Shown: positions 26,135 through 44,004 of the stretch, one piece after another
Numbering within the stretch: the first letter of the stretch is position 1
Layout of the letters: every line of letters begins with the position of its first letter
NCBI GenBank assembly: GCA_020345725.1
Contig: CP070767.1
Coordinates: forward strand, 179,215 to 231,802
DNA from: Methanobacteriota archaeon
Lineage (GTDB): Archaea; Thermoplasmatota; Thermoplasmata; RBG-16-68-12; SOIM01
Length of the DNA: 52,588 nucleotides
Direction: 5' to 3'
Notes under the pieces: generated by a model
Databases searched by the model: none
Told to the model about the DNA's origin: nothing
Seen by the model: the letters and a program-made list of their open reading frames with translations, nothing else
Program-made: the position numbers and the translations under genes

Positions 26135-26145
26135 TACCTTGTCTC

Positions 26146-27000: not shown

Positions 27001-28013
27001 TGACTCACCAACGGACACAGTGGATCGGTCGCGCAAAGATCTCCAGTATTCTCGTAAGCGGACGCTCTACAGCCTCCTCCACAGTAGACTAGATATTTAC
27101 AATTCATGCAAGTGTCTGAAAGACGGTCTATTGACCTCATCTTATCCAAGAATGCGTTGTCATTCCAAATATCCGCGAATTTCTGCTCACGGAGATTCCC
27201 TAGCTTCACAGAGAAGTATCCACACGGCTTCACCCACCCATCTGGGGTTATTGCACAGAGTTGCTTTCCGCAGACACATCTGGATCCAACGAAGGATTTG
27301 TCAGCCTTGTTTTCTGGTAGGTCTTTTCCAAGGAAATGGAAACTGGGAGTTATCAGCTGAAATGGAATGGTCAGGTTTCTTCTCTTCTCTTCTATGTATG
27401 AGAAAGCTTCTCTCATTGCTTCCGGATCGGGAATGTACTTCTCGTTCTCGCTGCCCCTGCCTACACTGACAAACGGTCTTACGCGAAAAGCATCCACTCC
27501 GAGACCAGTCACGAAGTCGATTATATCTGGAACTTCCTTGTGATTCTGCTGTGTTATTGTGAGTCTGACTGCCGTCTTGATGCCTTCTCCCTCCGCGGCC
27601 TTGATAGCCCTTATCGCCCGTTCGAATGCTCCCTTCATCCCCCTGAAGGCGTCATGAGTCTCTCCAAGTCCGTCTATGCTGACCTGTATCTCTGATACAC
27701 CTCTTTCCTTGAGTTTGGATGCTAACTCCTCGTCAAGCAGGATCCCATTTGTGAACACCCTGTATCTTATTGAATTCTCATTCAAGAATGATCCCAGCTC
27801 CAGAACTAAGTCCTTCCTGCAGAGCGGTTCTCCACCAGTCATTGTGAGAAGCTTCATTCCGTTCTCCTTCAAATCCAGAACCATGCTCTTCGCTTCTTCC
27901 ACGCTGAGCTCATCAGGTAGCGGTTGTCGTGCCTTCGCAAAACAATGGGGGCAGCTGAGGTTGCATGCCAGTGTTACCTGGTAGCGAACGTCTCGGATGG
28001 ACCACATATCCAT
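26997..28013 (-). CDS. Radical SAM enzyme with a C-terminal SPASM-type auxiliary-cluster domain (338 aa)
   Basis: Canonical CNLSCPHC (CX3CX2C) at residues 17-24, GGEPL, and a C-terminal Cys cluster CVCGKQLC...KPCGY...CMNCKYLVYCGGGCRASAY typical of SPASM/twitch maturases (anSME/PqqE/AhbD-like). Confidence 0.85.
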   Translation of the reverse strand: MDMWSIRDVRYQVTLACNLSCPHCFAKARQPLPDELSVEEAKSMVLDLKENGMKLLTMTGGEPLCRKDLVLELGSFLNENSIRYRVFTNGILLDEELASKLKERGVSEIQVSIDGLGETHDAFRGMKGAFERAIRAIKAAEGEGIKTAVRLTITQQNHKEVPDIIDFVTGLGVDAFRVRPFVSVGRGSENEKYIPDPEAMREAFSYIEEKRRNLTIPFQLITPSFHFLGKDLPENKADKSFVGSRCVCGKQLCAITPDGWVKPCGYFSVKLGNLREQKFADIWNDNAFLDKMRSIDRLSDTCMNCKYLVYCGGGCRASAYENTGDLCATDPLCPLVSQ

Positions 28014-28106: not shown

Positions 28107-28610
28107 CTATTTTGCCCAGGGGCAGTTCTGTTTGTTGGGGCAGTCCTTACATTCATAGTACTTGTGGAAGAGAGGGAGTATCACAAAACCCACAATAACA
28201 AAGGACAGCGTCAAGGCCAGGAAGAACCATGAAAAATCGGTGAACAGCAAGAAGAGGCTGCCCAACAGGGGATAGATCCACACTAAGGATAGGAACGGAA
28301 TATATGTCTTGAACATCCTCTGGAACTGGGAGATATCTCTCCTTTTGAAGAGTTTGGAGGCAATCGTTCCATATCCAGAAGGACAGCGTCCGCCTCCATA
28401 CGAAGGACAGTAGGTACAGACATACCTGAGAAACAGGACAAGAGCCAGGACTATGAACGACAGGTAGAGAATACCGAAGAGAATCCCCACATATGATAGT
28501 ATTATGAATCCAAGAACGTAGGTGGTCAGACTCGGGATGTTGGCAATGACTGTTTCTTTTACTGTGGACCTTACCGCATGGTGTCCTATTGAAAATGCAT
28601 ACTTCCCCAT
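28107..28610 (-). CDS. Integral membrane protein (167 aa, ~4 TM) with two Cys-rich loops
   Basis: Hydrophobic segments (LTTYVLGFIILSYVGILFGILYLSFIVLALVLFL, FLSLVWIYPLLGSLFLLF, FFLALTLSFVIVGFVILPLF). Cys loops: CTYCPSYGGGRCPSGYG and a C-terminal YECKDCPNKQNCPW. Preferred over the overlapping alternative-frame ORF 28153-28620. Confidence 0.6.
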   Translation of the reverse strand: MGKYAFSIGHHAVRSTVKETVIANIPSLTTYVLGFIILSYVGILFGILYLSFIVLALVLFLRYVCTYCPSYGGGRCPSGYGTIASKLFKRRDISQFQRMFKTYIPFLSLVWIYPLLGSLFLLFTDFSWFFLALTLSFVIVGFVILPLFHKYYECKDCPNKQNCPWAK

Positions 28611-31600: not shown

Positions 31601-32335
31601 CGCCTCTGTCCATATGCCTGTCCCGTCTCCAAGCCAAACATGAAGACCAGCACCTGCGGCAGCAAGATCGGTATTATTGTCATTGTTAACATCATCCATC
31701 CACACACTGAAGTAACTTCCACTTGTTGGAAGGTTTGTCGAGGCTTGCGTCCAGACACCTGCTCCGTTCCCAGTGAAAACCTTCACACCACCAAACACAT
31801 CATTCCCAACTGCAAGATCCAAGTTGTCATCATTGTTTATGTCAGCAAGGAATAGGCCTGTATTCCAAACCTCTCCAGGCAAGCCTGTGGAGGCAGGAGT
31901 CCAGGAACCTGCGCCATTGCCGGTCCAAACACCGACAGTGCCAGGACCATAGTCATAATTGGAGGCTGCAAGGTCCAGATCTCCATCGTTGTTGATATCA
32001 CCCAGACTCACGCCAGCATCGAAGGTCGTGCTTGGAAGGCCAGTGGAGGCAGGGGACCAGTTACCCGCTCCATCCCCAGTCCATACACGTACTCCTGAGT
32101 AGCCTGCTGTAGCAATGTCCAAGTTGCTGTCATTATTGATGTCACCGAACCAAATGCTATGCTGACTTGAGGCTCCTGGCAAACCAGCTGAAGCGGATAC
32201 AAAGCCAGTCCCTATCGGGTCCTCTTCTGAATGAGCTTGAACATCCATGGAAGTGAGCAAGTTCCCAAACGATGCCCCAATTAGAACCGCGGTCAAGGCG
32301 AGTGGGAACCAGCGAGTTGTTGACTTGAATTTCAA
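28673..32335 (-). CDS. Large surface protein (1220 aa, TTG start): signal peptide, FG-GAP/VCBS-type (integrin-alpha-like) beta-propeller repeats, six Ig-like repeats, C-terminal TM anchor
   Basis: N-terminal hydrophobic signal. About 7 repeats of GDINNDxxLDL...VWxGxGxGxW (aa ~60-385). Six ~97-aa repeats (aa 494-1081). C-terminus LPIIPILAAAIIIIIVVIALLLLMRKKKEQEPE. Confidence 0.8.
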   Translation of the reverse strand: MKFKSTTRWFPLALTAVLIGASFGNLLTSMDVQAHSEEDPIGTGFVSASAGLPGASSQHSIWFGDINNDSNLDIATAGYSGVRVWTGDGAGNWSPASTGLPSTTFDAGVSLGDINNDGDLDLAASNYDYGPGTVGVWTGNGAGSWTPASTGLPGEVWNTGLFLADINNDDNLDLAVGNDVFGGVKVFTGNGAGVWTQASTNLPTSGSYFSVWMDDVNNDNNTDLAAAGAGLHVWLGDGTGIWTEASNGLPWTDQWNGVTMGDIDLDGNLDIVSSMDMGGHGIKAWLGDGTSNWTLASNGLPTNDLYYGVILADLVGDKYPDILAAGYGGNGIRIWKGDGGSTWTDASATLPVGKVIGVAAGDINDDGYMDIGAAGEGFGVQVWINDETSPPLKVEVEDPNAGEIWKVGTQHAINWTASGGTAPLTIRIEYSIDGITGQYSQIADGESNDGTFLWTVPNTPSSDCYVRVNVTDSALRTNWDKSNNSFTIPPVETTPPVISGLLPINQSVIGNAMPIIGANYSDVSGINTTSVLLMVDGIDGTPSAIVTDSNVTYIPALPLSDGIHDVYLEVRDDSINQNKAVVTWQFTVDTQPPDITNLLPNNGSTVGDDTPTISASYSDPSGIDTGSVMLKLDTVDVTASSTITPTGVMYTPVVPLPNGRHNVSLQVNDSSTPMNTAVKTWWFNVDTTIVDTIPPSITNMQPINESIIGDASPVIRADYADSSGIDITTVVLEVDSIDVTSLATITPLDIIYTPLVPLTEGLHDAYLEVQDDSANHNVASKTWWFLVDTTPPLITIQQPANESTILDSTPVIRTSYSDDSGINVTDVTIFVDLIDVTPLATVTPNYVSYMPASTLSEGRHDVRLEVGDQSAPQNRATVTWWFLVNPVAPEIMDMQPLNQSIISDNLPVIGANYSDESGIDTAGVILMIDGIDFTSSATVTSSQISYTPATPLTEGVHNAYLEVRDNSPMSIMSSATWWFIVDTLAPNITSLQPTNNSLTSDNTPTIRAGYEDASGVDLSSIVIEVDGIDVTGSAVITADQVTFTLSASLPDGSHNVRLTVEDISSPSNVNVTVWSFEIDSTPPTINHQAISSGTAGEDIPVEATITDSNGVSTASLFYKRSQAGSYIRIAMTPSASDTFTATIPGSDATTDGVWYYIEANDTLDNIGRRPDTDWEIDITERAEQPSGLPIIPILAAAIIIIIVVIALLLLMRKKKEQEPE
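29093..30856 (-). repeat. Six tandem coding repeats (~291-306 nt each) of an Ig-like domain
   Basis: Consensus PPxITNxxPxNxSxIxDxxPxIxAxYSDxSGIDxxxVxLxVDxIDVTxxATxTxxxxxYTPxxPLxEGxHxxYLEVxDxSxxxNxAxxTWWFxVDT. Copies are diverged at the DNA level. Confidence 0.85.
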
Positions 32336-32348
32336 ACGAACACCGTGA

Positions 32349-35300
32349 TTATTTTCGAGCAGCTATTGCGATCGGACTATCACACTCTGGACATATTGTG
32401 TCATTCATTCCGAGTTCATGTCCACAATTCTCGCAAGTATCAGGGGCCTCTGCACCGGCAGGTGTTTCCTCTCTCTTTCTTCTCTTGAGTGCAAGGAAGA
32501 GTAGAAGTATCAAGAATACGGCCGCCACAAGGATTGCCAGTATCCACCAGGGGAAAGCACCCACTTCCTGCGCGCTCGCCGTAACCCTGACCGTCATTGT
32601 GTCTGTGCCGGTATTTCCAGCCATGTCCTTGATCGTGAGAGTGACTTCGTACTCGCCAACTTCTCCGAACCTGAACTGGCCAGAACAGTCAGGGATTTCG
32701 AACTCCTCATTGAGATATGGGAAAGTCCAACTGCAATTATTGGGGTCTATTCCGCTTCCATCGATTCCGTCGTCCGAACCGCTGGAGTCAAATACCACAA
32801 TGTGCCCGACACTAATCTCAACGTCATCACCAGCATCGGCATTGGGGGACTGTGTGTCCAGAAAGACAGTGATATATCCGATAGTTCCCACATTACCAAC
32901 CCTGTCGATGCTCCCGAAGTATATCCTATGCTCTCCTTCAGTCATCGTTCCCGCGACGAGTGGACCCGAATAGGTTGATGTGCAGGCAGTGTCGTCTATT
33001 CCGTAACAAATGGAAGATACTCCAGATCCTTCACCATCGTCTGCAGTTATTGAGATCGTTGCCAGAGCGGTGTTGATGTAGTTTGTTTCTGTGCTATCAT
33101 ATCCTGGTATTACGCTCGTGGGTGCAGTGTTGTCCAGGTACAATATCTCGGTAACCTCGATCTCCTCCGTGCCCAACTCATCAGTGCTCTTGAAAAGGAC
33201 TTCTCTCTCCCCGTCATCTCCAGACAATTGGAGAGGTACACTGAACGCGGTCCAGTCTTCTATTACCACTCCGTCCTTCTTGATCTGATACCAAGTGGTT
33301 CCAGCTCCACTACCAGCTCCATCTTCAACTGTGAAGCTGATTGGCGTCATCGAGCTAACGTATGTAATGCTTGGAGCAGTGTGGTTTGGCTCACCAGTCA
33401 CCATTTGTGTGGTAGGGGCGGTGTTATCCAAATATACCTGGAATGTTCTCTCGCTTTCCTCGTTGTTGACATTGTCCTTGCTCTTGACGATAACATCCCA
33501 CAAACCGTCCTCACCCGTGAGGTAGATAGCTCCACCGGTGTAATGAGTCCAGTCAACTTCTATGATTCCGTCCTTCTTGATTTGGTATTGGGTGGAACTC
33601 TCTCCGCTTCCCAATCCATCATCAGCTGCGAAATAAATCGGGGTCTGGGAAGTGAGATAGGTAGTTCCAGAAGCATTGTGGTGTGGCGCACCTACACTCA
33701 TGTCGGATACAGGTGGGCTATTGTCCAAGTAGATATGTTCTGTCTTTGCAAGTTCCTCGTTGCCAAGTGTATCCCTGGCTTTGAATTTGACATATATCAA
33801 TCCGTCACTCTTGGAGCTCGAGATCGCAAAATTGCCTGTGTACGGGCTATATAGCGGCTCAGACTCTCCAAAGGCGTAGTAGAGATACTCGATGGATTCC
33901 ACTCCAACACCCGAATCGTCACTCGATGTCAGGTTGAGCGGTGTAAGCGAAGTTACATATGTGTTGGTACTGATTGGATCCGTGTACTGTGGGAACAAGA
34001 TGTTGAGTGAAGTGGTTGGAGCAGTTGTATCGATAGCGAAGGACCATGTGGCAGTAGATACGAGCGAATTGGTGTCAGCAACGGAGATGTAGACTTCATG
34101 GTCGCCATCATTCAAGGGTATTGCTGGTGTGAATTGAATGTCTCCTGAGGTCTTTATCGACATCGAGGTGACGTTCATTGAATCCACCTCCAGCACAACG
34201 CTTCCAAGATCAATCCCAGAAGTGTCAGCATAATCTGCCCCAATTGTTGGCTGGTTGCTGTTTATGATTGAGAGATGATCTGGCTGCAGGTTTGATATTA
34301 TCGGAGGTTGTGTGTCAACTATGAACCACCACGTCTCCACTGCTGTGTTTTTGGGGTTGGAATTGTCGCTTACCTGAAGATACACATCATGTACTCCATC
34401 AAGAAGTGGAACAAGGGGAACATAGGATACATCACCTGAAGTCACAGTAGCACTTGAAGTCACATCGATTGAATCCACCTTCAGGATCACACTTCCAGTG
34501 TCGATCCCTGACACATCGAAATAGAATGCGCTGATGGCGGGAGTCGTTTCAGTTGTAGAAGATTCATTTGCAGGCTGCGGGTTCATGATTGCAGGGGGTA
34601 ACGTGTCCACCACGAACCACCACGTTGCAGAGGCCTTGTTCTGATTGGAGGAATCGTCCATTACTTCCAGATACACGTCATGCGTGCCTTCCGTCAGTGG
34701 AATCAAAGGTGTATACGAGATGCCTGTGGCTGTTATTGTGGCATCGGCAGTGACGTCTACGCTGTCCACTTCCATCCGAACACTGCTGGTGTCGACTCCA
34801 GATTCATCCCAATATTCGGCACTGATAACCGGCACGTTTTCGCCTATGGTCGATTGGTTGGTGGGCAACGTGTTGTTGATCAGCGGTGGGGTGTAGTCAA
34901 TAGTCACTCCCGTTATGTCAACCATATCAATCCAATGAGTTATTGGCCCTGTAATGTGGTTGTAGAATCCCATCGCTACGTAGATCTCTCCCGTAGGTCC
35001 CGACGTGAACGTGTTCAGGTAACTGTACTCATACCATCCCACAGTCTGCCCGCTCATTCCGATCACAGTGAAGTCCGGATAGTCCTCAGGATCTGTCGTT
35101 CCCGCATACGCCAGTACTTCAAGAGGCGACCCAGTTGATTCGCTGTACAACTGGAAATTCACGCCAATGTCCAATGAGGTGCTTGCAGGAGCCTGGACAA
35201 TTCTCTCAATCCATACTGAAAGCTGCGGATAAGGTGGCGTGGGAAGCCCATGACAGAACAATTCAACTGAATAGGATCCGTCAAAAGCATATAAACTGGA

Positions 35301-35489
35301 TATCGCGACGTTGAAATATGCCGGGTCATAGTTGAAATCACCAACCCAATCGCCAAAACCGCCTTCAAAACTCTCGGATATCTGTGCCGAGCTGATCATC
35401 GAACCGTGCTGAAGCACTGTCAGTAGAACCAAGACACCAAGAACTGCAGAGGCTCTCCTCCGTGTTTGTACGCCCTTTCTTGTCATCAT
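32349..35489 (-). CDS. Large surface protein (1046 aa): signal peptide, N-terminal domain, three copies of the same Ig-like repeat, four copies of a second Ig-like repeat, PKD-like domain, TM helix, cytoplasmic zinc-ribbon tail
   Basis: Signal MMTRKGVQTRRRASAVLGVLVLLTVL. TM FPWWILAILVAAVFLILLLFLAL followed by KRRKREE. Tail CENCGHELGMNDTICPEC (CX2C-X10-CX2C). Located 13 nt upstream of the 1220-aa gene. Confidence 0.8.
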   Translation of the reverse strand: MMTRKGVQTRRRASAVLGVLVLLTVLQHGSMISSAQISESFEGGFGDWVGDFNYDPAYFNVAISSLYAFDGSYSVELFCHGLPTPPYPQLSVWIERIVQAPASTSLDIGVNFQLYSESTGSPLEVLAYAGTTDPEDYPDFTVIGMSGQTVGWYEYSYLNTFTSGPTGEIYVAMGFYNHITGPITHWIDMVDITGVTIDYTPPLINNTLPTNQSTIGENVPVISAEYWDESGVDTSSVRMEVDSVDVTADATITATGISYTPLIPLTEGTHDVYLEVMDDSSNQNKASATWWFVVDTLPPAIMNPQPANESSTTETTPAISAFYFDVSGIDTGSVILKVDSIDVTSSATVTSGDVSYVPLVPLLDGVHDVYLQVSDNSNPKNTAVETWWFIVDTQPPIISNLQPDHLSIINSNQPTIGADYADTSGIDLGSVVLEVDSMNVTSMSIKTSGDIQFTPAIPLNDGDHEVYISVADTNSLVSTATWSFAIDTTAPTTSLNILFPQYTDPISTNTYVTSLTPLNLTSSDDSGVGVESIEYLYYAFGESEPLYSPYTGNFAISSSKSDGLIYVKFKARDTLGNEELAKTEHIYLDNSPPVSDMSVGAPHHNASGTTYLTSQTPIYFAADDGLGSGESSTQYQIKKDGIIEVDWTHYTGGAIYLTGEDGLWDVIVKSKDNVNNEESERTFQVYLDNTAPTTQMVTGEPNHTAPSITYVSSMTPISFTVEDGAGSGAGTTWYQIKKDGVVIEDWTAFSVPLQLSGDDGEREVLFKSTDELGTEEIEVTEILYLDNTAPTSVIPGYDSTETNYINTALATISITADDGEGSGVSSICYGIDDTACTSTYSGPLVAGTMTEGEHRIYFGSIDRVGNVGTIGYITVFLDTQSPNADAGDDVEISVGHIVVFDSSGSDDGIDGSGIDPNNCSWTFPYLNEEFEIPDCSGQFRFGEVGEYEVTLTIKDMAGNTGTDTMTVRVTASAQEVGAFPWWILAILVAAVFLILLLFLALKRRKREETPAGAEAPDTCENCGHELGMNDTICPECDSPIAIAARK
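32850..34022 (-). repeat. Four tandem coding repeats (~97 aa) of a second Ig-like domain type
   Basis: aa 490-880. Recurrent pattern TYxTSxTPIxFxAxDGxGSGxxxxxYQIKKDG...W..Y.......EDG...V..KS.DxxxNEE......YLDNTAP. Confidence 0.7.
34023..34892 (-). repeat. Three tandem coding repeats of the same ~97-aa Ig-like domain found in the 1220-aa protein
   Basis: aa 200-489: ...YTPLIPLTEGTHDVYLEVMDDSSNQNKASATWWFVVDT..., matching the consensus of 29093-30856. Confidence 0.8.
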
Positions 35490-35697: not shown

Positions 35698-36768
35698 ATG
35701 AGTGCCAGGTTGAAGAACCGCATACTCTGTCGGGGTGTCAGGGTCCCTGATGAGCTCAAGACTGGTAGGAAGAGCGGAGCAGGTCCTGCCGGCGGAAGAT
35801 ACCTGGAAGTTAACAATAGCGTTGTGAATGCCCCCATTTATGGCTTTTCGGAAAACTCACCAATATCACTTGAATTCTTTGACGGACGCTACTCTCTCGG
35901 GGACAATGGTGACACATGTCCCACCAATCTCATCGAAGAACCGTCATTCTACACCGGAAACACCTCGGACGGAATCCCGATGAAGAAGATAGCGCTTCAG
36001 CATGGAGTGAACTGTCTCGCCACAACCGTTTGTCAGAGATGTCTGTACTGGAGAACCGGAGAAGAGTGTTATTTCTGCGGCATAGAGCTCTCTCTGAAGC
36101 ACGACACCACAATTCCATCAAAGAGTCCAAGGCAACTGGCGGAAGTCGGTGCTTTGGCGGAAAAGGAAGGTTTCAATCACTGCACTCTCACAACCGGCAC
36201 ATCAAATCTGAGGGACAGAGGAGCAGAGCTCCTGGCGAAATCGGCGGAAGCGCTCAGAGATAACACTGGTATGAAAATCCATGTCCAGCTGGAGCCTGTT
36301 GATGGGGAATGGATATCGCTTCTGAAGGAAAGCGGAGCGGATACGATCGGAGTACACATCGAATCCCTGGATGCTCGAGTTTTTGGGACCAAATGTCCTG
36401 GAAAAGCCCATCAATGGGAGAAGTATTGGGAGACTTGGCACGACGCATTAGAAGTATTCGGAGATAATCAGGTCAGCTCGTACGTTATTCTCGGGCTGGG
36501 AGAAGAGGAAGAACCTTCAAAGAAGGGCATAGAGAGAATGTGCCAGTCTGGAATAATCCCTTATCTCGTGCCACTCAGACCTATCAATGGAACGAAACTG
36601 GAGAACGCTCTCCCACCAACTCCTGAGATAATGATGGAATACTACCTGTACGCCATTGATTGCATGAAGACCTATGGTGTCAACCCAACAAAGAATCTAG
36701 CTGGTTGCGTGAGATGCGGAGCCTGCTCTGCTTTGGTAGATTTCTATGAGGAATCTCATGCTTTCTGA
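35698..36768 (+). CDS. Radical-SAM-like TIM-barrel protein with a non-canonical Cys cluster (356 aa); possibly MSMEG_0568-family
   Basis: SD GGGGAGGA precedes the ATG. Cys cluster CLATTVCQRCLYWRTGEECYFC (C-x5-C-x2-C-x8-C-x2-C, nt 36013-36078). BioB/HydE-like downstream blocks (GADTIGVHIESLD, VILGLGEEEE). The subfamily call rests on gene context only. Confidence 0.6.
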   Translation: MSARLKNRILCRGVRVPDELKTGRKSGAGPAGGRYLEVNNSVVNAPIYGFSENSPISLEFFDGRYSLGDNGDTCPTNLIEEPSFYTGNTSDGIPMKKIALQHGVNCLATTVCQRCLYWRTGEECYFCGIELSLKHDTTIPSKSPRQLAEVGALAEKEGFNHCTLTTGTSNLRDRGAELLAKSAEALRDNTGMKIHVQLEPVDGEWISLLKESGADTIGVHIESLDARVFGTKCPGKAHQWEKYWETWHDALEVFGDNQVSSYVILGLGEEEEPSKKGIERMCQSGIIPYLVPLRPINGTKLENALPPTPEIMMEYYLYAIDCMKTYGVNPTKNLAGCVRCGACSALVDFYEESHAF

Positions 36769-37717
36769 TATTGTTGCAGGAGTTAGAAACTATCCAGGTT
36801 TGATAAGAAAGCACGCCATATCCAGGCTTGTTGATGTCCTCCGTCCAATTCAGGATTTCGGTGACACCGTTCTCGGCTTCGGAGAGGATGCAGCCGCCTT
36901 GAGATTGGGGAATGAGTTCCTTCTCTTCGCATCAGATGGCATCTGGTCGAAACTGCACGCGGACCCGAGATGGGCAGGTTACTGTTCTGTCTTGGTGAAC
37001 GTGAACGACATTTACGCGATGGGGGGCAAACCTTTCGCCTTGACAAACAACATATCGTTCACAAGCGAGGAGGAAGGAGAATTGGTGGCTGAAGGGATCA
37101 GGGATGCCTGCCAGAAGTTCGAAGTGCCAATGGTCGGAGGTCACACTCATCCAGATTCAGATTCTCTTACTGTTTCAGTTTCGGTAGTAGGTAGGGCAAG
37201 CAAGCTGATAACAAGCAGAGACTGCCAAGTGGGCGATGACTTGATTGTGGCGATTGATTTGGATGGGAGAAAGCGAGGGGAGTTCCTGAACTGGGATTCA
37301 ACTTCTCACAAGTCCTCAGAGGTTGCGCGCAATCAACTGGACAGTCTGATTGAAATCGCCCAAAAGGATTTGGCAACTGCGGGAAAGGACCTGTCGAACC
37401 CTGGTATTCTTGGGACAATTGGCATGTTGCTAGAGACTTCAGAAAAAGGAGCAGTCATAGATTTGGGTGTATTGCCCATCCCTGATGGAATAGATATGAC
37501 AGAATGGGTATTGATGTATCCTGGTTACGGATTCGTGCTATCTTGCCAAAAGGATAGAAGTAGCGAGATTTCTGAGGTTTTCCTAGAGAGGAACATCGAG
37601 GCATCAGTGATTGGTGAGGTCACTGAAGGAAGCAAGGTCACTCTGAAGCAATCAGGGGAAGAAGAGACTCTATTCGATTTCCAAATCGACTCGATAACCG
37701 GCATCAAGATGAGGTAG
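36746..37717 (+). CDS. AIR synthase-related (PurM/ThiL/HypE-fold) protein (323 aa; alternative ATG at 36758)
   Basis: FGEDAAAL, ASDGIW, VNDIYAMGGKP, VGGHTHPDS and DLSNPGILGT blocks typical of the PurM superfamily. Overlaps the stop of the upstream gene. Confidence 0.75.
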   Translation: MRNLMLSDIVAGVRNYPGLIRKHAISRLVDVLRPIQDFGDTVLGFGEDAAALRLGNEFLLFASDGIWSKLHADPRWAGYCSVLVNVNDIYAMGGKPFALTNNISFTSEEEGELVAEGIRDACQKFEVPMVGGHTHPDSDSLTVSVSVVGRASKLITSRDCQVGDDLIVAIDLDGRKRGEFLNWDSTSHKSSEVARNQLDSLIEIAQKDLATAGKDLSNPGILGTIGMLLETSEKGAVIDLGVLPIPDGIDMTEWVLMYPGYGFVLSCQKDRSSEISEVFLERNIEASVIGEVTEGSKVTLKQSGEEETLFDFQIDSITGIKMR

Positions 37718-37720
37718 TTC

Positions 37721-38200
37721 ATGATTGAGAAAGGACCGATTGTGGAGGAGTTTGGCGAAGAGGATTGTGAAGAGTTGGAGAATCTCTACCGAACTGTCTG
37801 GCCAACCGCTGCTGAGTACCCTGAGCACTGGAGACAGAACAGGATGTTGAGGTCGGATCAGGTTCGGGAGGAAATGAGGAAAGGAATCCGGTTCTTTGGA
37901 ATCAGGGATCAAGGAAAGATAGTCGGTGTTTACAAGGCCAGAATAACTGAAGACGAATGTTTTGGAGAACATCAATCCATTCTTGCCTCCCACAGAGGAA
38001 CTGGAATAGCCTCCCGGATGTACGACCAATTCAAGAAACTGGCAAAGGACAACGGTTGCAGGATAAATAGCGTCAACGTCCTCATGGGTCAGGAACCAAC
38101 GCTCAGATTAGTAGAAAAACATGGTTTCCACAAGGTCGGAGAACCCTTCGAGCAGTCGCCTGGGATGCTTGTCCAGAGGTTTGAAAGGAACGTTGATTAG
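37721..38200 (+). CDS. GNAT-family N-acetyltransferase (159 aa)
   Basis: Acetyl-CoA-binding block HRGTGIASRMYDQFKKLAKDNG (R/Q-x-x-G-x-G/A). Lies 3 nt after the AIR-synthase-related gene. Confidence 0.75.
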   Translation: MIEKGPIVEEFGEEDCEELENLYRTVWPTAAEYPEHWRQNRMLRSDQVREEMRKGIRFFGIRDQGKIVGVYKARITEDECFGEHQSILASHRGTGIASRMYDQFKKLAKDNGCRINSVNVLMGQEPTLRLVEKHGFHKVGEPFEQSPGMLVQRFERNVD

Positions 38201-38397
38201 ATCTCCAAATACATCTTGACGATACTTCCAATGACCAGTTTATCCTTGAGATCTTCCTGGACACGGAGCTCTACCTTCTCACCCCTCAAATCTTGAAGAG
38301 TAACTCTGAACATCTCCGGTTCTGGTTCTATCTCTTTGACCTCAAATGCGTTCACAAATTCCGTCATCTTATCCCTATTGGACAATGGGTGTAGCAT
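38197..38397 (-). CDS. Small hypothetical protein (66 aa)
   Basis: ATG ORF co-directional with the osmC-like gene upstream. Its 3' end overlaps the GNAT stop by 4 nt (convergent). No motif recognised. Confidence 0.35.
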   Translation of the reverse strand: MLHPLSNRDKMTEFVNAFEVKEIEPEPEMFRVTLQDLRGEKVELRVQEDLKDKLVIGSIVKMYLEI

Positions 38398-38419
38398 AAA
38401 ATAGATTTCTCAGAAGAAG

Positions 38420-38845
38420 CTATTCGGCTATGACTATCTCTGGCTTGACTTCAACTTCGGATTTTATGGAGTTGGCAATGAAGCATCTTGAATGTAGGAG
38501 CTCCAGAGCCCTCTCCGTCTTCCTCACGTCTTCCTCACTCTTCACCACAATCTTGGGTGTCAAGACTATTCTCGTGAAAGACAGAACTTTCTCTCCTTCT
38601 TCCAGATACCCAACCGCGTCACAGTCGTAGGACAAATACTCAATCCTCATCTTCTCAGCATATGCAATGAAAGTCATCAGAAAGCAAGTGTTCTCTGCAG
38701 CCACGAACAGCTCTTCCGGTGTTATGTAGCCTTCAACTCCCTTGAATTCAGGGGGAGAAGAGAAGTCCATGGCATTACCGCTCTCGGTCTCCAGACTGCA
38801 GATTCTGTTTTTCTTCCATGCCACCTTCGTGTTGTATTCGTACAT
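38420..38845 (-). CDS. OsmC/Ohr-family peroxiredoxin-like protein (141 aa)
   Basis: TPEELFVAAENTCFLMTF and HSRCFIANSI, the two conserved Cys contexts of the OsmC family. Confidence 0.75.
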   Translation of the reverse strand: MYEYNTKVAWKKNRICSLETESGNAMDFSSPPEFKGVEGYITPEELFVAAENTCFLMTFIAYAEKMRIEYLSYDCDAVGYLEEGEKVLSFTRIVLTPKIVVKSEEDVRKTERALELLHSRCFIANSIKSEVEVKPEIVIAE

Positions 38846-38859
38846 ACTTCACCATCCAT

Positions 38860-39990
38860 TCAGGAGGCCTTCCTCAAAGCCTTCCTGTAGACTTCCAAGG
38901 TTCCCTTTGCCGTCTTCTTCCAGGAGAACCCTTCCACCTTCTTTCTCGCGGCCTTTCCGAGCCTGGCTGCCAGCTTCTTGTCTGTAAGTATCTTAACCAT
39001 AGATTCTGCCAACCCTCTGACATCTCCACATTCCAACAGTACCCCACTCTTGCCATCATCGACGAGTTCCGGGATTCCTCCCACCCGGTAGGCAATCACG
39101 GGTTTCTCGAATGCCATTGCTTCCATGAGTGTCAGACCCCAGCCTTCCATTCGGGACGGGAGCACGAAGACATCGCATTCTCTGTAGTAGCGGGGCAACC
39201 TACCATCAGAGACGAAATCTTTGAACACCACATTCCTATGTATGCCAATCCTCTCGGCCAAATCCGCAAACATGTCCTTTTCATTGAAAAACTGTCCCCC
39301 GGTCAAGCCGCTCTTACCCACAATCGTTAGCTTTACATTGGGAATTCTATCAATCACCTGCTCGGCTGCCAGTAGAAGGAATTCAACACCCTTCCGAGCC
39401 TCAAGTCCGCCCACATACAGTATGGAAGGCCTCGAAGATGCCTTGTTGTCCCTGTTCCCTGTTCCAAACTTTGACAGATCGATGCCATTGTAGATTAGGT
39501 GAGTGTTCACTCCGAATTCCTTCTTCAAAGCCTCCTTCCAGTAATTCGAAACGACAATCTTCTCATCCAGTAGATGTACCGATTTCTCCTGTAGATTCGT
39601 AAGAGTACGTCCCCTGAACTCATCTATGTGGTGAATCGTCCTGACCGTAGGGGCATCCAAATTCCCAGAATCTTTGAGCTCGAACAAGGCATTGGCACCA
39701 ACACAATCCTGTGAATGATATATATCAAAATCTAGAGGCAGATTCTTTCTATAGGCTGCTATCATCCTCTTTACATCGCTCACGATCTTGCCAGTCGAGG
39801 AGTAATTGTATACTGAGTGTGGGACAGCGGTCTTTCTGTAGAATCCATCCTTGAAACCTCTTTCACCCTTCTTCTTCAAAGAGAATAGATGTACATCATG
39901 ACCCATGTCCGCCAAAGCCTCCGAAAGATTGAGGGCATGAACGACTCCTCCTCTTGGTTTGGTGCTGTATGTCAGCATAGCGATTTTCAC
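38860..39990 (-). CDS. GT-B (GT4-like) glycosyltransferase (376 aa from GTG 39990; the ORF track starts at TTG 39996)
   Basis: N-terminus (M)KIAMLTYSTKPRGGVVHALNLSEAL. C-terminal EGWGLTLMEAMAFEKPVIAYRVGGIPELV (E-x7-E). SD GGTGAT lies 6 nt before the GTG. It may belong to the MSMEG_0565 subfamily (unverified). Confidence 0.8.
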   Translation of the reverse strand: MKIAMLTYSTKPRGGVVHALNLSEALADMGHDVHLFSLKKKGERGFKDGFYRKTAVPHSVYNYSSTGKIVSDVKRMIAAYRKNLPLDFDIYHSQDCVGANALFELKDSGNLDAPTVRTIHHIDEFRGRTLTNLQEKSVHLLDEKIVVSNYWKEALKKEFGVNTHLIYNGIDLSKFGTGNRDNKASSRPSILYVGGLEARKGVEFLLLAAEQVIDRIPNVKLTIVGKSGLTGGQFFNEKDMFADLAERIGIHRNVVFKDFVSDGRLPRYYRECDVFVLPSRMEGWGLTLMEAMAFEKPVIAYRVGGIPELVDDGKSGVLLECGDVRGLAESMVKILTDKKLAARLGKAARKKVEGFSWKKTAKGTLEVYRKALRKAS

Positions 39991-40046
39991 TCGCAAATCA
40001 CCACTGCCATATCGATTTCCTGAGTATCTCTAGTTCGTATAAAACA

Positions 40047-41255
40047 CTATTGGGAAGGTTCAGGTTCGGGTTCAGTTCCAACAAGTTGTTCGACCAGTTG
40101 CACAAGGTCCATCGTCTTGATGTCGAGTCCTGCCTTCTTCGCACCTGCGTTGAGATTGACAACACAGAAAGGACAAGGTGTCACTATTAACTCAGCACCC
40201 GTCTCCACGGCCTCCCGTACCCTTCCTACAGCTATGTTCTCAGCCTGCTCATTGAAGGCTATCTTGAAACCTCCCCCGGCACCGCAGCAACGGGATTTCT
40301 CCCTTCTTCTCGGCATCTCTAGTAGCTCAAGGCCAGGTATCTTCTCGAGGACCTTCCTGGGTTCGTCAAAGACTCCTGCATGCCTTCCAAGATGGCATGG
40401 GTCGTGGTACACTACCTTCTTGTTGAACTCTTTCGTGAACTTGAGCTTCTTCTCCTTAATCAACTTCCAGATGTACTCGCTGATGTGGTAAACGTCAAAG
40501 GGTCTGTAGCCGACCAAGGCCGGGTAGTTCTCTTTGATGGTCTTATAGCAGCCAGCACATGCCGTGACAAGTTCCTTTACCCCTCTCCTCTCCACCTGAT
40601 GGATGTTATGCTGGATGTATTCCTCCTTCACCTTGTCCCCCAGACCCGTTCTGAGCAAAGGAGAGCCGCAACACCACTCGTCCGGTCCCAAGACGGTAAA
40701 CTCGACACCTGCAGCTTGAAGGATCTTCACCGTCGCTTGAGCAAGGAACTGCATTCGATAGGAGGCAGTGCAACCCACAAAATACGCCACGTCCGGATTG
40801 TCCGAGAGCTTCGTTCCCTCGGGTACCCAATTCCCACGCTTATCCAATAGGTCCTTCTCCGGGTCGTTGGCATCGAAGAATGGATTCCTCTTGTTTGGAT
40901 CGTAGATCCTCTTCCTCAGTTCCTTGTGACCTGGCAAGGGATCCATTCCATTGTGCGCAAGCCATTCCTTGACATCCTCCCACACCTCTGAGAGCTTGAT
41001 CTCGACATGGCAGACCTCATCGCATATGCCACAAGATGTGCAGTGGAACAGAGTCTCGTAAAATGATTGGTCCTGGTCCTTTTTCTTTCTGTTCTCAAAG
41101 AAACCTCTCTCCCCCATCCTCTTGAGGTAGAATATCTTGCCTCTGGGACAATCGGCCTCCCATCCGAACTGATCATAGGCAGGGCAAGTTGCCTTACAGT
41201 AGCCACACTGCAGACAGGAATACAGGTCCAGGTCAATGTCAGCAACTTTGTCCAA
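40047..41255 (-). CDS. HdrD/GlcF-like iron-sulfur protein: 2x[4Fe-4S] plus two CCG domains (402 aa, TTG start)
   Basis: CLQCGYCKATCP and CTSCGICDEVCH. FVGCTASY...WCCGSP and YHDPCHLGR...RCCGAGGG...CPFC. SD GGAGGATGA precedes the TTG. Lies 4 nt after the flavoenzyme gene. Confidence 0.85.
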   Translation of the reverse strand: MDKVADIDLDLYSCLQCGYCKATCPAYDQFGWEADCPRGKIFYLKRMGERGFFENRKKKDQDQSFYETLFHCTSCGICDEVCHVEIKLSEVWEDVKEWLAHNGMDPLPGHKELRKRIYDPNKRNPFFDANDPEKDLLDKRGNWVPEGTKLSDNPDVAYFVGCTASYRMQFLAQATVKILQAAGVEFTVLGPDEWCCGSPLLRTGLGDKVKEEYIQHNIHQVERRGVKELVTACAGCYKTIKENYPALVGYRPFDVYHISEYIWKLIKEKKLKFTKEFNKKVVYHDPCHLGRHAGVFDEPRKVLEKIPGLELLEMPRRREKSRCCGAGGGFKIAFNEQAENIAVGRVREAVETGAELIVTPCPFCVVNLNAGAKKAGLDIKTMDLVQLVEQLVGTEPEPEPSQ

Positions 41256-41259: not shown

Positions 41260-44004
41260 TCATCCTCCGGTTTGAGATCCGGCAATCTTGGTTCTTGGCA
41301 GAGCCTTCTTCATCATTCCCAATAGGTTCAGGCCGATATTCATCAGAAAACCTGGGATGGGAATTCCCCATTTGATTCTCATTTCAGTCATCTTCCCAGG
41401 GTTCATGATATTATCAATGTCGATTATCTCTTTAATATTGCGAATTATGCGAGCTCCTTCCTTTCCATGAAGGTTGTTTAGGTTCCAAGCGAACCAGACA
41501 CCCAGGCCAGAGGGTCGTCCATCCAATTTGACGGCCTCATCGATAATCCTCTTCACGAAACCCATTGAAGCGAGGCTCTCTATGGCAAACCTCTCATTTG
41601 ACAGGTAGAATGGCATGAATGCGACCGAGTTCCTGTCGACTACAACGCCTCTCAGGGTGGACATTATCTTCATCTCCCTGCTTATCTTCGCAGCTCTGCT
41701 GAGCATCTCCGCAAGGCGCGTGGTTGGGATGACCCCCTCTCCAATCGTCCCACCTGGACCCAGTCTCCTTATTCTCATCTCGTAAGATCTCTCTTTCCAC
41801 TCATGAGTTGCCAGTTCTTCGGACTCCTTCTTCCCCCCGCTCTCAACCATTAGCTTATCGAGGGACTTCTCATTGACTTCATTGACTGCAGCAGAATCTC
41901 TGAGTGCAATGCTCAATAGCGAACCCACCTCGGGCGCCTCCTTTCCCAGCATTCTGAGAAACTCGAAGTTCTTCTCGTCATAGAACCCAATATTGTATGG
42001 GGTGATGTTCGATTGTGATATCTTCATCAAGGGTTGTTGCAGTGCCATTGCGTTCTTGAAGGAATATGCCAGGGGCCTGGTTTCTTCTGCCAGCGGATAC
42101 AGCTTCACCGCCACTTCGGTTACGATGCCCAGACTTCCCTCCGAACCCGAAAAAAGAGCATTGAGATCGTACCCAGGGCCTCTGTTGGAGCATCCTCCTG
42201 ACTCTGTGTCTATCATTCCTCCGTTGCTCATGACAGCTTTCAAGAATCCGACCTGTGAGTATGCCGTCCCGTACTTGTATGACCCAACTCCCGCACCGCC
42301 AGTGTTTGTCCAGCCACCAATCGTCGCAACAGGAGCGCTTGAGGGGCAAGCACCTATCATGAGACCTTTCCTTTCTACCTGTGTGTACAACTCCTCCCAT
42401 GTGACAGAAGGCTCGCAGTAGGCCAACATCCTATCCTCATCGATGTCCAAGACTTCTCTCATTGAAGACAGATCCAGCAATATTCCACCCTGGGTGGCTA
42501 TTGCGCCTCCGAATCCCCAACTCCCGCCTCCTCGGCCAATCAATGGGATCTTATTCTCCCTGGACAATTGAACGATTGCAGCTATCTGCTCTGCGTTCTG
42601 GGGCCTTGCCACTGCATCCGGAATCATATCAAATGCGATTTCCACAAGCTTCGGAAGGGGTGCCAGATCGTGAGTGTAGTAGTATTTCGTAAACTCGTCA
42701 AACGCCACATTCTGTTCTCCAACAATGGATTCCAATCTCTTTCTGAGCCGAGCGTTCAAGACACCCTTCTTGGGTGGCCAGGATTTCTTGAGGCGAGATC
42801 TTGAGATCTTCTTCCTCCACGTGCCTACGTCCTTTTGGAGAGCATACTTGGAGATGATTCTGTCCATTGCAGGTGAAGCGATCCTTCCCTTGCTGTCAGC
42901 CCCTGTCTTTATCGATGCCATCGTCCTTCCAACTGGACCTCCATCCTCCTTCTGGGTTTGACTCTCTATCCATGAACTCAGATCTTTGCGGTAGCCTCCC
43001 ACAGAGGGGAGCAGTTTCCCAATCTTTGCCCTCAGATCGTTCAAATCCACCTTGGTCGAGACATCCTTGGGAAGGGATATCCCTACTGCAACGTATTGTC
43101 TATCAAGCAACAAGCACGAGAAGGCCAGAAGTGTGTTGATGCTGCTCGCACCAGAAAGGAAGCTGTTGAAAGAAGCGAGAGGAACAATGATCTTGTCCAC
43201 GAATGCATGACCCATATCGACCATCTTGTCCGAGAAGAATCTCCTCCTCCATCTTCCGTTTGAAACCTCGGTAGTCTCTCTCTTTCCATTGAGTCCCTCA
43301 AGTTCTGTGCTGATTCTCTCTTCCTCCACATTCAGGACGTCCTTGGGGCCAGCATAGGTTATGCCCAAGATGTTGGTGGGCTCCTTTCCCGAGTAAGAAG
43401 GCACAATCAAGAAGGAGATGTTGTATGGCGAAGTGCTCCCTCCAATCACTTTGTCAAGAGCTTCAAGAATCGTTTCAGGATTTGGGAAGGAGAATGTGAT
43501 CGGCAAAATGGCCTCCCATGAAGGTATGAGCTTCAGAGTGACCTGCGTCAATTTCCCCAATGTGTCGTATGAACCGACAAATAGTCTGTTGAGATCGTAC
43601 CCAGTACTGAAGTTCGATATCGGATGATAACCAGTATCGATTGTCTTCCCGCTACCAAGAACAATCCTGAGAGACCTCACCTGTTCTTCTGGTCCGCCTT
43701 GGGAGAAGCTTCCCATGCTTGGAAGGCGTTTTGATATCCATTCACCAATCGTCATTCCCTTGGACCCAGCCGGATAGGAGGCCAGCGTTCGGTTATGTTT
43801 TCTCAATGAGGAAAGCAACCCTGCGCAGGACGTGTCCGGAGTGCAAGTCACAAAAAAATTGTCGCTACTTATCCTGACGCTTTCTCCTGCCAAGGATTCT
43901 GACCCCCTTCCTCTTCTTGAGTGCACAGACAGATTCATCAGTTTTTCTAGCGTCTGGACACTACCCATTTGGGTGCTTTTGGGTTCGAATCGGAGTAATG
44001 CCAT
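41260..44004 (-). CDS. FAD-linked oxidase, tandem GlcE-like (degenerate) plus GlcD-like modules (914 aa); D-lactate/glycolate dehydrogenase family
   Basis: The C-terminal module has an intact PCMH FAD-binding domain (PDAVARPQNAEQIAAIV...IPLIGRGGGSWGFGG...GGWTNTGGAGVGSYKYG...GYDLNALFSGSEGSLGIVTEVAVKLYP). The N-terminal ~400 aa repeat the fold (MTIGEWIS...GYDLNRLFVGSYDTLGKLTQVTLKLIP) but lack the GxGG loop. Confidence 0.75.
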   Translation of the reverse strand: MALLRFEPKSTQMGSVQTLEKLMNLSVHSRRGRGSESLAGESVRISSDNFFVTCTPDTSCAGLLSSLRKHNRTLASYPAGSKGMTIGEWISKRLPSMGSFSQGGPEEQVRSLRIVLGSGKTIDTGYHPISNFSTGYDLNRLFVGSYDTLGKLTQVTLKLIPSWEAILPITFSFPNPETILEALDKVIGGSTSPYNISFLIVPSYSGKEPTNILGITYAGPKDVLNVEEERISTELEGLNGKRETTEVSNGRWRRRFFSDKMVDMGHAFVDKIIVPLASFNSFLSGASSINTLLAFSCLLLDRQYVAVGISLPKDVSTKVDLNDLRAKIGKLLPSVGGYRKDLSSWIESQTQKEDGGPVGRTMASIKTGADSKGRIASPAMDRIISKYALQKDVGTWRKKISRSRLKKSWPPKKGVLNARLRKRLESIVGEQNVAFDEFTKYYYTHDLAPLPKLVEIAFDMIPDAVARPQNAEQIAAIVQLSRENKIPLIGRGGGSWGFGGAIATQGGILLDLSSMREVLDIDEDRMLAYCEPSVTWEELYTQVERKGLMIGACPSSAPVATIGGWTNTGGAGVGSYKYGTAYSQVGFLKAVMSNGGMIDTESGGCSNRGPGYDLNALFSGSEGSLGIVTEVAVKLYPLAEETRPLAYSFKNAMALQQPLMKISQSNITPYNIGFYDEKNFEFLRMLGKEAPEVGSLLSIALRDSAAVNEVNEKSLDKLMVESGGKKESEELATHEWKERSYEMRIRRLGPGGTIGEGVIPTTRLAEMLSRAAKISREMKIMSTLRGVVVDRNSVAFMPFYLSNERFAIESLASMGFVKRIIDEAVKLDGRPSGLGVWFAWNLNNLHGKEGARIIRNIKEIIDIDNIMNPGKMTEMRIKWGIPIPGFLMNIGLNLLGMMKKALPRTKIAGSQTGG

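Follow-up and report, generated by a model that had tools for sequence, protein, structure and literature searches.

Nit1C is a conserved bacterial gene cluster, named for its nitrilase and exemplified by nitBCDEFGH of Pseudomonas, sll0783-sll0787 of Synechocystis and the gpr genes of Mycobacterium smegmatis (MSMEG_0565-0572) (PMC1199592). Its chemistry has been unsolved since 2005. Podar et al. 2005 remarked that its radical S-adenosylmethionine (SAM) and AIRS genes are closest to archaeal genes (PMC1199592), and M. smegmatis depends on its cluster, which also raises NADPH/NADP, to resist peroxide (PMC6039565). Here we analyze a 52,588-nucleotide (nt) stretch of DNA (the window; positions 179,215 to 231,802 of contig CP070767.1, assembly GCA_020345725.1) from a Methanobacteriota archaeon of the class Thermoplasmata, in which an earlier note, made from the letters alone, had described a nitrilase-less version of this cluster. 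We find that the locus corresponds, in an archaeon, to the conserved Nit1C/gpr core and that it ties this core, through a predicted orthologue, to methanogenesis marker 2 (Mmp2), for which it provides a first gene-context clue. Our literature search found no publication on an archaeal Nit1C-type cluster, on Mmp2 orthology in such a context or on a link to XcbA, a protein family of coenzyme M (CoM) synthesis; the archaeal occurrence and the tie to Mmp2 are both reported here for the first time.

An archaeal counterpart of the Nit1C/gpr core

Three of the genes form a tight, translationally coupled operon on the plus strand. It encodes a radical SAM enzyme of the MSMEG_0568/NitD family (35698-36768, 356 aa; TIGR04043, NF045502 and Pfam Radical_SAM), an AIRS-like ATP-dependent enzyme of the PurM superfamily that is a homologue of sll0787/NitF (36746-37717, 323 aa; TIGR03267, TIGR04049 and Pfam AIRS plus AIRS_C), and a GNAT N-acyltransferase (37721-38200, 159 aa; Pfam Acetyltransf_1). 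The first two genes overlap, by 23 nt, and the third begins 3 nt past the AIRS stop codon, an overlap and a gap that the earlier note had already reported. A GGAGG motif lies 8 nt before the ATG of the radical SAM gene, and the 208-nt intergenic region ahead of it holds a TATA-like A/T-rich element; a scan for sigma-70 promoters and terminators returned no enrichment, as expected in an archaeon.

A second operon, on the minus strand, converges on the first. It consists of a GT4 (GT-B) glycosyltransferase of the MSMEG_0565 family (38860-39996; TIGR04047, Pfam Glyco_transf_4 plus Glycos_transf_1), an OsmC-family thiol peroxidase (38420-38845; Pfam OsmC, 64.6 bits) and a 66-aa open reading frame (ORF) for a small protein conserved by synteny (38197-38397), with gaps of 14 nt and 22 nt between them. 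The glycosyltransferase ends 660 nt from the GNAT stop codon, in keeping with the approximately 0.7 kb previously given for this opposite-strand gene. The peroxidase and the small ORF had also been placed correctly, but they are not fillers beside a lone glycosyltransferase, since all three genes are co-directional in one operon. The glycosyltransferase frame reads MRVKIAMLTYSTKPRGGVVH from a TTG, and its true start may lie a few codons downstream. Fifty nt upstream of the glycosyltransferase, on the same strand, is the gene for an HdrD/TfrB-like CCG iron-sulfur protein (40047-41255; two Pfam CCG domains and Fer4), preceded by that for a double-module, GlcD/GlcE-like FAD-linked oxidase (41260-44004; Pfam FAD_binding_4 and FAD-oxidase_C), the first gene of the minus-strand run.

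This eight-gene layout is repeated in a sister family (f2; f1 denotes the archaeon's own family), whose proteins are 42-68% identical to those of the window. When flanking ORFs were clustered in an unbiased way, AIRS was the commonest partner of the radical SAM gene, in 29 of 84 loci from several phyla. Because of the f2 layout, of this recurrent adjacency and of the fact that the genome's sole MSMEG_0565-type glycosyltransferase gene is found here, the arrangement reflects more than chance.

Three annotated, plasmid-borne bacterial Nit1C clusters (Synechocystis, Klebsiella and Acidisoma) served as the comparison set. Over their full lengths, the radical SAM enzyme is 35-38% and the AIRS-like protein 31-37% identical to the cluster proteins, and the glycosyltransferase is 32% identical to the annotated Nit1C-cluster glycosyltransferase. 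Scored against the curated hidden Markov models (HMMs) of the named families, as the earlier note had proposed, only the glycosyltransferase exceeds its cut-off (275 bits with TIGR04047; cut-off 259.85); of the genome's 14 GT4-like genes no other does so, the next best reaching 109 bits. The radical SAM enzyme falls 11 bits short with TIGR04043 (292.4; cut-off 303.7) and is above the cut-offs of NF045502, a 'variant rSAM' domain model (167.6; cut-off 125), and of Pfam Radical_SAM (49.7; cut-off 29.5); orthologues from the same order score 296-326 bits with TIGR04043, and members from Bathyarchaeia and Freyarchaeum 338-344. The AIRS-like protein scores 303.6 with TIGR04049 (sll0787; cut-off 321.3). 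These three proteins are thus full-length homologues of the named families, and to this extent the proposed kinship with Nit1C holds; it does not extend to the GNAT.

The GNAT had been tentatively equated with the MSMEG_0567 family, a placement that we did not recover: the corresponding model, TIGR04045 (MSMEG_0567/Sll0786), matches neither this protein nor any other in the genome, and no BLAST similarity to the three annotated Nit1C GNATs was detected. By sequence clustering it belongs to an archaeal radical SAM-associated subfamily, together with the radical SAM-flanking GNATs of Bathyarchaeia, Theionarchaea, Odin/Promethearchaeota and a Methanobacteriota metagenome-assembled genome (MAG); these archaeal proteins form one cluster, distinct from the Nit1C GNAT. 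In Desulfobacterota, radical SAM enzyme and GNAT are fused in one 509-aa protein encoded ahead of the AIRS gene. Fusions of approximately 510-555 aa followed by AIRS were seen in locus L081 (L081:9926-11455) and in L039, L041, L049, L064, L067, L086 and L094; ahead of that of L081 lie genes for an NMT1/TauT-type ABC transporter and for a cytochrome/CCG complex of the Tmc/Hmc-like kind. In the Desulfobacterota fusions the GNAT part shows a weak match to the N-acyl amino acid synthase FeeM.

The genome is a single 1.99-Mb contig, for which a marker-based completeness of 76% may be an underestimate in so unusual a lineage. In all of it, the sll0784 nitrilase model (TIGR04048) finds no match and the MSMEG_0569 flavoprotein model (TIGR04046) finds 21.5 bits at best (cut-off 498), in agreement with the previously noted absence of both; the DsrE-like MSMEG_0572/Sll0783 (TIGR04044) and MSMEG_0570 (TIGR04042) are likewise without a match. 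Neither the peroxidase nor the small ORF resembles any Nit1C protein of the comparison clusters, and both were rejected as diverged forms of MSMEG_0570 or MSMEG_0572. Since the nitrilase, the flavoprotein and the small Nit1C proteins are missing and the GNAT differs, the locus is not Nit1C in the strict sense, and we regard it rather as an archaeal form of the Nit1C/gpr core.

What is shared with Nit1C, then, is the homologous radical SAM and AIRS-like pair, a GNAT in the same operon and the variant cysteine motifs described below; an MSMEG_0565-type glycosyltransferase is shared with the Burkholderia, Acidisoma and mycobacterial versions. Beyond the missing genes, the differences concern gene order (radical SAM-AIRS-GNAT here, radical SAM-GNAT-AIRS in Nit1C), the GNAT subfamily, the location of the glycosyltransferase in a separate convergent operon with OsmC, the placement of the AIRS-like protein in an archaeal/Mmp2 clade rather than the NitF clade, and the archaeal host.

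The radical SAM enzyme lacks the canonical CX3CX2C motif and carries a variant SAM-cluster motif, C-x8-C-x2-C (C115, C124 and C127), as well as a C-terminal triad, C-x2-C-x2-C (C337, C340 and C343). All six cysteines are invariant across 36 diverse members; the archaeal members have the first motif as C-x8-C-x2-C, and the three proteins from the annotated bacterial Nit1C clusters have it as C-x9-C-x2-C. At the N-terminus, a beta domain of approximately 100 aa that is specific to the family bears an invariant R-x2-GAGP. The AlphaFold2 model (mean predicted local distance difference test score 95.6) has a partial TIM barrel, whose nearest folds are HydE, BioB, lipoyl synthase (LipA), ThiH and PylB, with a template-modelling (TM) score of approximately 0.5 over the barrel. 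LipS2 is the best characterised NCBIfam neighbour.

Distribution and phylogeny of the core

A scan of one genome per species yielded 80 loci, approximately 30 of them bacterial. On a BLAST-based map, none of the 80 has a nitrilase or flavoprotein gene within 10 kb, in a sample that was picked by similarity to the archaeal query and in which classical Nit1C is under-sampled. Nitrilase-less forms are common in Archaea and Bacteria. The closest relatives of the radical SAM and AIRS-like proteins come from Thermoplasmata/'Methanomassiliicoccales' MAGs, and more distant ones from Methanofastidiosia, Theionarchaea, Bathyarchaeia and many Asgard lineages. Archaeal members of the radical SAM family are not rare: NCBI names many of the archaeal proteins 'MSMEG_0568 family radical SAM' (Thermoplasmata, Bathyarchaeia, Asgard and other MAGs) or 'methanogenesis marker 2'. 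Among 151 genomes of the class, the radical SAM gene was found only in the archaeon's own family (3 of 5) and in one sister family (4 of 4); AIRS adjoins it in all seven, and the glycosyltransferase gene lies approximately 2 kb off in six of the seven, where on the same contig.

Asgard and some TACK loci pair the radical SAM gene with an acyl-CoA-synthetase-alpha-like gene instead; in L025 and some 20 other Asgard loci the neighbours are ribosomal protein L10e, methylmalonyl-CoA mutase and this synthetase-like gene, with no AIRS nearby. In ANME-1, Syntrophoarchaeum and Alkanophaga the radical SAM gene stands alone. Chloroflexota, Actinomycetota and Bacillota have the order Amidohydro_2-MSMEG_0572-radical SAM-GNAT-AIRS, with clear MSMEG_0565-family glycosyltransferases (345-422 bits) a few kb away. 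A 288-aa protein that is repeatedly encoded ahead of nitrilase-less clusters in bacteria, considered as a cryptic CN-hydrolase, is the Amidohydro_2 protein.

Trees of both proteins were built by quick searches without an outgroup, the AIRS tree being midpoint-rooted. In the radical SAM tree, the window protein groups with its own order and Theionarchaea, and classical Nit1C sits deep inside the bacterial nitrilase-less forms, next to Chloroflexota (SH-like approximate likelihood-ratio test, SH-aLRT, 97). Because of this nesting the nitrilase association looks derived, and the nitrilase that named Nit1C would be a derived accessory. The survey and the tree together bear out the earlier suggestion of a core independent of nitrile chemistry. 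The phylogenies had also been proposed as a check for horizontal transfer from bacteria, and neither tree gives a sign of recent transfer. Taken as unrooted, the two are broadly congruent, as expected for a co-inherited pair.

The AIRS-like protein and methanogenesis marker 2

With TIGR03267, the model of methanogenesis marker 2, the AIRS-like protein scored 364.4, only 0.6 below the cut-off of 365, and its orthologue from the same genus scored 366.4, above it. It shares 45-50% of its residues with the Mmp2 proteins of Methanobacterium and Methanothrix relatives, and its gene is the only one of its kind in the genome. The nearest solved relative is ThiL, followed by PurL, SelD, PurM and HypE; the C-terminus, ...SITGIKMR, is without the C-terminal cysteine of the HypE type. 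The AIRS tree separates a clade of classical Nit1C (NitF), Chloroflexota, Actinomycetota and Bacillota from one comprising Desulfobacterota and all Archaea, the window protein included. Within the latter, Mmp2 of Methanobacterium and the Methanothrix relative is nested among radical SAM-linked archaeal proteins, and the window protein groups with Methanobacterium, Methanothrix-type and Methanofastidiosa proteins (SH-aLRT 95). On these sequence grounds we classify it as a predicted orthologue of methanogenesis marker 2.

To our knowledge, the Mmp2 family was originally defined, in its TIGRFAM description, as confined to methanogens. McrA was not found in the present genome, and across the 151 genomes Mmp2-like genes occur in seven Thermoplasmata families, five of which are McrA-negative. 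A stray Mmp2 homologue is mentioned, and left unexplained, in a preprint on basal non-methanogenic Thermoplasmata.

The window gene also differs from other Mmp2 genes in its coupling to radical SAM and GNAT genes. Elsewhere Mmp2 lies either in the mmp operon, as in Methanobacterium, where its neighbours are DUF2117, DUF8179 and DUF2113 genes and a small radical SAM gene, or after an M50 peptidase gene, as in Methanomassiliicoccales-type families. The 283-aa radical SAM protein that ends the Methanobacterium mmp operon is unrelated to the window enzyme (E = 0.06), and therefore methanogens do not simply hide the same radical SAM-Mmp2 pair; the control methanogens have Mmp2 and no radical SAM protein of the MSMEG_0568 family above the cut-offs. 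In families f9 and f11, Mmp2 follows the M50 peptidase gene and the gene of a conserved protein of approximately 190 aa (L107:7280-7855; L110:7754-8320). The latter is kept in the present genome (G000:C1:680119-680697, at 680 kb) with no Mmp2 beside it, and thus the Mmp2-like gene sits elsewhere in f1 and f2, next to the radical SAM gene. The neighbourhoods of the Mmp2-like and MSMEG_0565-type glycosyltransferase (GT0565-like) genes in f8, f9 and f11 were uninformative.

Linkage to an XcbA-family gene

The window holds a further operon on the minus strand, 8.7 kb upstream of the radical SAM gene, that begins with a radical SAM/SPASM enzyme of the AhbD/NirJ-like type (26997-28013; Pfam Radical_SAM and SPASM; TIGR04545, 235 bits, below the cut-off). 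Its middle gene encodes a 296-aa predicted [Fe-S] member of the XcbA family (26146-27036; NF052538, 228.6 bits, cut-off 150; Pfam DUF7714, 219.6), and its last a NadA-fold paralogue (25058-26266; Pfam NadA, 90.6 bits) that is well below the cut-offs of the NadA equivalog models. The founding member of the XcbA family is a [2Fe-2S] enzyme that reduces sulfoethanethioaldehyde to coenzyme M, the terminal step (PMC9457059).

In relatives the distance to the core is shorter. In G121, a genome of the same genus, the XcbA operon ends approximately 0.8 kb from the start of the divergent radical SAM gene, and in f2 the XcbA gene lies 2.4 kb from it; overall, an XcbA-family gene is found approximately 2 kb from the radical SAM gene in G121, G014 and G026. 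The only gene between the two operons in G121 encodes a 167-aa membrane protein with Cys-rich motifs (CTYCPSYGGGRCP ... CKDCPNKQNCPW) that is 83% conserved between G121 and the window, where it lies at 28107-28610 on the minus strand. In the window, two giant surface-protein genes (28673-35489) separate the XcbA and radical SAM operons. From this comparison they look like a lineage-specific insertion that split a once contiguous supercluster; the insertion is also present in G047 and in the L009/L010 MAGs.

XcbA homologues also lie within 10 kb of the radical SAM/GNAT/AIRS core in three Chloroflexota and three Actinomycetota loci, the five that were scored reaching 305-374 bits. In L047, 10 nt separate the end of the GT0565 gene from the start of the XcbA gene. 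Downstream of XcbA, L090 carries XcbD-, XcbE- and XcbC-like genes, and L084 an XcbD gene whose score exceeds the cut-off. The nitrilase-less cores of Actinomycetota and Chloroflexota (L047, L071, L079, L084 and L090) thus share with the archaeal locus the missing nitrilase and a radical SAM/GNAT/AIRS set, MSMEG_0565-type glycosyltransferase and XcbA-family gene within a few kb. They differ in keeping MSMEG_0572 and a Nit1C-type GNAT and in adding Amidohydro_2, XcbD, XcbE and XcbC-like genes, whereas the archaeon has XcbA only, in its SPASM radical SAM/NadA-like operon, plus OsmC and the HdrD-like/FAD pair. We found no publication on these bacterial cores with Amidohydro_2 and Xcb genes.

Among the 151 genomes, 41 have both Mmp2-like and XcbA genes, 105 have neither and 5 are discordant, counts taken without phylogenetic correction. 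In one genus, a single genome carries the radical SAM, Mmp2-like, glycosyltransferase and XcbA genes and two lack all four. In the present genome ComA (PF02679) was not found and the best XcbD-like protein scores 358.7 (cut-off 600); the full known CoM pathway is therefore not present, although no separate search was made for XcbC and XcbE.

Glycosyltransferase, peroxidase and minus-strand neighbours

The nearest solved relatives of the glycosyltransferase are MshA, then BshA and PimA. The peroxidase keeps Cys54 and Cys121, 67 residues apart, and occupies the same position in f1 and f2; a GT0565-OsmC-like pair was also found in one Dadabacteria locus. The small ORF is 41-76% identical to ORFs at the same position in the same-genus genome, in f2 and in another Thermoplasmata MAG, and has no Pfam or NCBIfam match. 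It is probably a real, unannotated gene, whose core of approximately 56 aa probably starts at Met11 (38367).

The CCG protein belongs to the conserved layout of f1 and f2 only and is syntenic in f2 at 68% identity. Its best NCBIfam match is TfrB, a subunit of CoM/coenzyme B (CoB) fumarate reductase (255 bits, below the cut-off of 385), and a role as a (di)sulfide reductase partner is possible. A link of this protein to the Desulfobacterota radical SAM loci was discarded: it does cluster with proteins there, but those belong to Tmc/Hmc-like complexes, and the similarity is that of a generic family. The FAD-linked oxidase, syntenic in f2 at 43% identity, would be linked to the cluster by synteny only.

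A sulfur or thiol metabolite as the candidate product

We favor, with a probability of about one half, a reading in which these genes serve to synthesize or modify a sulfur metabolite of low molecular weight, most likely a CoM-related thiol or thiol conjugate, for redox and peroxide defence. The sulfur/redox direction is suggested by the modelled fold of the radical SAM enzyme, close to HydE, BioB, lipoyl synthase and ThiH, and by its LipS2 neighbour; by the affinity of the glycosyltransferase to MshA and BshA, which act in thiol pathways; by the operonic association of OsmC with the glycosyltransferase here and in f2 and the corresponding pair in Dadabacteria; and by the requirement of the M. 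smegmatis cluster for peroxide resistance. The putative redox-defence context given by OsmC matches this gpr phenotype. The coenzyme M direction follows from the proximity of XcbA to the core in relatives and in six bacterial loci, together with the co-occurrence of Mmp2-like and XcbA genes. A protective role as a low-molecular-weight thiol in methanogens has been ascribed to CoM (PMC12713407).

In such a pathway, the GNAT would N-acylate an amine with acyl-CoA as the donor, and the PurM/ThiL-like enzyme would spend ATP to phosphorylate or activate an oxygen, either that of an amide carbonyl or one in a hydroxyl or phosphate group. The radical SAM enzyme, of the BioB/LipA/HydE class and with its cysteine triad for an auxiliary cluster, would functionalise an unactivated C-H bond, plausibly by sulfur insertion, and the MshA/BshA-like glycosyltransferase would add a sugar or build on one. 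OsmC would reduce peroxides at the expense of the product, and the HdrD-like/FAD pair could re-reduce the product disulfide. Mycothiol and bacillithiol synthesis offers a functional analogy, combining a GT4 enzyme (MshA/BshA), a GNAT (MshD) and an ATP-dependent enzyme (MshC), which here have counterparts in kind, including a retaining GT4 enzyme, beside a thiol peroxidase. Membership in those pathways is not claimed: the archaeal locus has no deacetylase or cysteine ligase homologue, and its radical SAM enzyme and PurM-fold ATPase are without counterpart there.

Several observations weigh against a CoM-related thiol product. Classical Nit1C clusters lack XcbA, and therefore the core does not need CoM genes everywhere. 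In other Thermoplasmata families, XcbA and Mmp2-like genes are 30 kb to >2 Mb apart, and their shared pattern may reflect common descent from methanogenic ancestors; it comprises only about 2-3 independent contrasts, and the two same-genus genomes scored as lacking the genes are 86-87% complete, so that a single missing contig could explain both absences. The GT0565-like genes of f9 occur without the radical SAM gene and far from Mmp2, and no glycosyltransferase, OsmC or XcbA gene was found near the radical SAM loci of Bathyarchaeia, Theionarchaea and Asgard archaea. OsmC accompanies the core in no more than a few independent lineages, the linkage to the FAD oxidase and CCG protein comes from one order, and a modelled fold match with a TM score of approximately 0.5 is no proof of sulfur insertion.

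A more specific version, which we consider distinctly unlikely, is that the radical SAM/GNAT/Mmp2-like triad makes a coenzyme B-like thiol, that is, an N-(omega-mercaptoacyl) amino acid phosphate. The GNAT would then N-acylate an amino acid, the LipA/LipS2-class radical SAM enzyme would introduce sulfur at the acyl-chain terminus, and the ThiL-like Mmp2 would carry out an ATP-dependent phosphorylation or coupling. We know of no enzymes assigned to the last steps of coenzyme B synthesis. If this version were true, Mmp2 would be an enzyme of these steps, and the triad together with the XcbA operon (for CoM or an analogue) would supply a CoM/CoB-type heterodisulfide couple in non-methanogenic Thermoplasmata, serving many heterodisulfide reductase (Hdr)-type enzymes and an OsmC-based peroxide defence; the 20-year-old Nit1C/gpr puzzle would turn out to be one of thiol-cofactor synthesis. 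For the broader reading, a sulfur-containing metabolite, the working hypothesis on the Nit1C/gpr core shifts from nitrile metabolism to sulfur/thiol redox chemistry, because the core recurs next to XcbA genes in both Archaea and Bacteria, and next to a thiol peroxidase in the window and in a Dadabacteria locus. The question bears on the disulfide substrate of many Hdr complexes in non-methanogenic Thermoplasmata.

Alternative explanations

The pair of radical SAM enzyme and ATPase could instead act in metallocofactor or Fe-S maturation, building or inserting a metal cluster or ligand for the neighbouring Hdr-type/CCG enzyme. HydE structures are the top structural neighbours of the former, HypE is a detectable relative of the latter, and the window is rich in Hdr-like Fe-S flavoproteins. 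Moreover, the mmp operon that houses Methanobacterium Mmp2 encodes, in methanogens, the activation complex of methyl-coenzyme M reductase (MCR), which includes Mmp7, Mmp3 and Mmp17 and contains complex Fe-S clusters (PMC12176620); Mmp2 itself is not mentioned there as a part of the complex. Given also that the AIRS-like protein lacks the HypE-type cysteine, that bacterial Nit1C contexts contain no obvious client metalloenzyme and that the GNAT (fused to the radical SAM enzyme in Desulfobacterota) and the MshA-like glycosyltransferase suit small-molecule chemistry better, we regard this explanation as unlikely. Somewhat less likely still is a Nit1C-like role, in which nitrogen-starved cells would scavenge nitrogen from nitriles or compounds derived from cyanide and a different hydrolase, encoded elsewhere, would stand in for the nitrilase. 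Nitrogen starvation or cyanide induces Nit1C, which Pseudomonas needs in order to assimilate cyanide (PMC7815647, PMC11049912), and the bacterial nitrilase-less forms carry an Amidohydro_2 hydrolase where the nitrilase would be; the archaeal locus, however, has neither a nitrilase-family match nor an Amidohydro_2 partner, the genome yields no match to the sll0784-type model, the radical SAM tree suggests that the nitrilase association is derived, and the neighbours are redox/thiol rather than nitrogen-assimilation genes.

We give little credence to a pathway of protein or peptide modification, akin to ribosomally synthesized and post-translationally modified peptides, in which the four enzymes would act on the small conserved protein or another protein. 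A conserved ORF of approximately 56-66 aa does close the glycosyltransferase operon, some flanking archaeal GNATs are weakly RimI-like, and several methanogenesis markers are McrA-modifying enzymes. Mmp10 is cited in this context (PMC9081873). The ORF, however, is limited to its own order and diverges at about the rate of its enzyme neighbours, many lineages have the core without it, protease, transporter and leader-like features are absent, and the radical SAM enzyme is of the BioB/LipA/HydE class rather than a SPASM/twitch peptide maturase. Tailoring of surface glycans or glycoproteins, with the GT4 enzyme and the GNAT serving the two giant surface proteins encoded immediately upstream, is very improbable. 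GT4 enzymes are common in archaeal glycosylation, and the surface-protein genes abut the radical SAM operon here and in two related MAGs, but G121 and f2 have an intact cluster with no surface-protein genes at this position, and the glycosyltransferase is specifically of the MSMEG_0565 family, which accompanies radical SAM/AIRS cores in bacteria. That generic enzymes without shared function are adjacent by accident is scarcely credible: two of the proteins narrowly miss their curated HMM cut-offs and the GNAT is of a generic kind, yet the genes are translationally coupled, their adjacency is conserved across phyla and domains, a radical SAM-GNAT fusion exists and the one family-specific glycosyltransferase of the genome sits at the locus, so that the conservation data already contradict it.

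Further observations in related loci

In two related MAGs, a gene for a 381-aa VOC/4HPPD-like protein precedes the radical SAM gene on the same strand (L009:5682-6827); it is absent from the window. In an Acidimicrobiia locus, genes for an FdrA-like acyl-CoA synthetase and a carbamate kinase lie just upstream of the nitrilase-less core (L090:2009-4518). Across the 151 Thermoplasmata genomes, GT0565-like genes and McrA are mutually exclusive, with 24 genomes having the glycosyltransferase only, 17 McrA only and none both.

Some XcbA genes of the class survey contain in-frame stop codons. One in-frame TAG was found in seven genomes of a single McrA-negative genus (f9, g12; for example G040:C1:399696-400550), and, among methanogens, one in-frame TGA in four genomes from one genus (f11, g56); the surveyed coordinates include G117:C2:534259-535080. 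G086, one of the seven TAG genomes, has a TGA in its XcbA gene as well. These in-frame TAG and TGA codons may encode pyrrolysine and selenocysteine, respectively.

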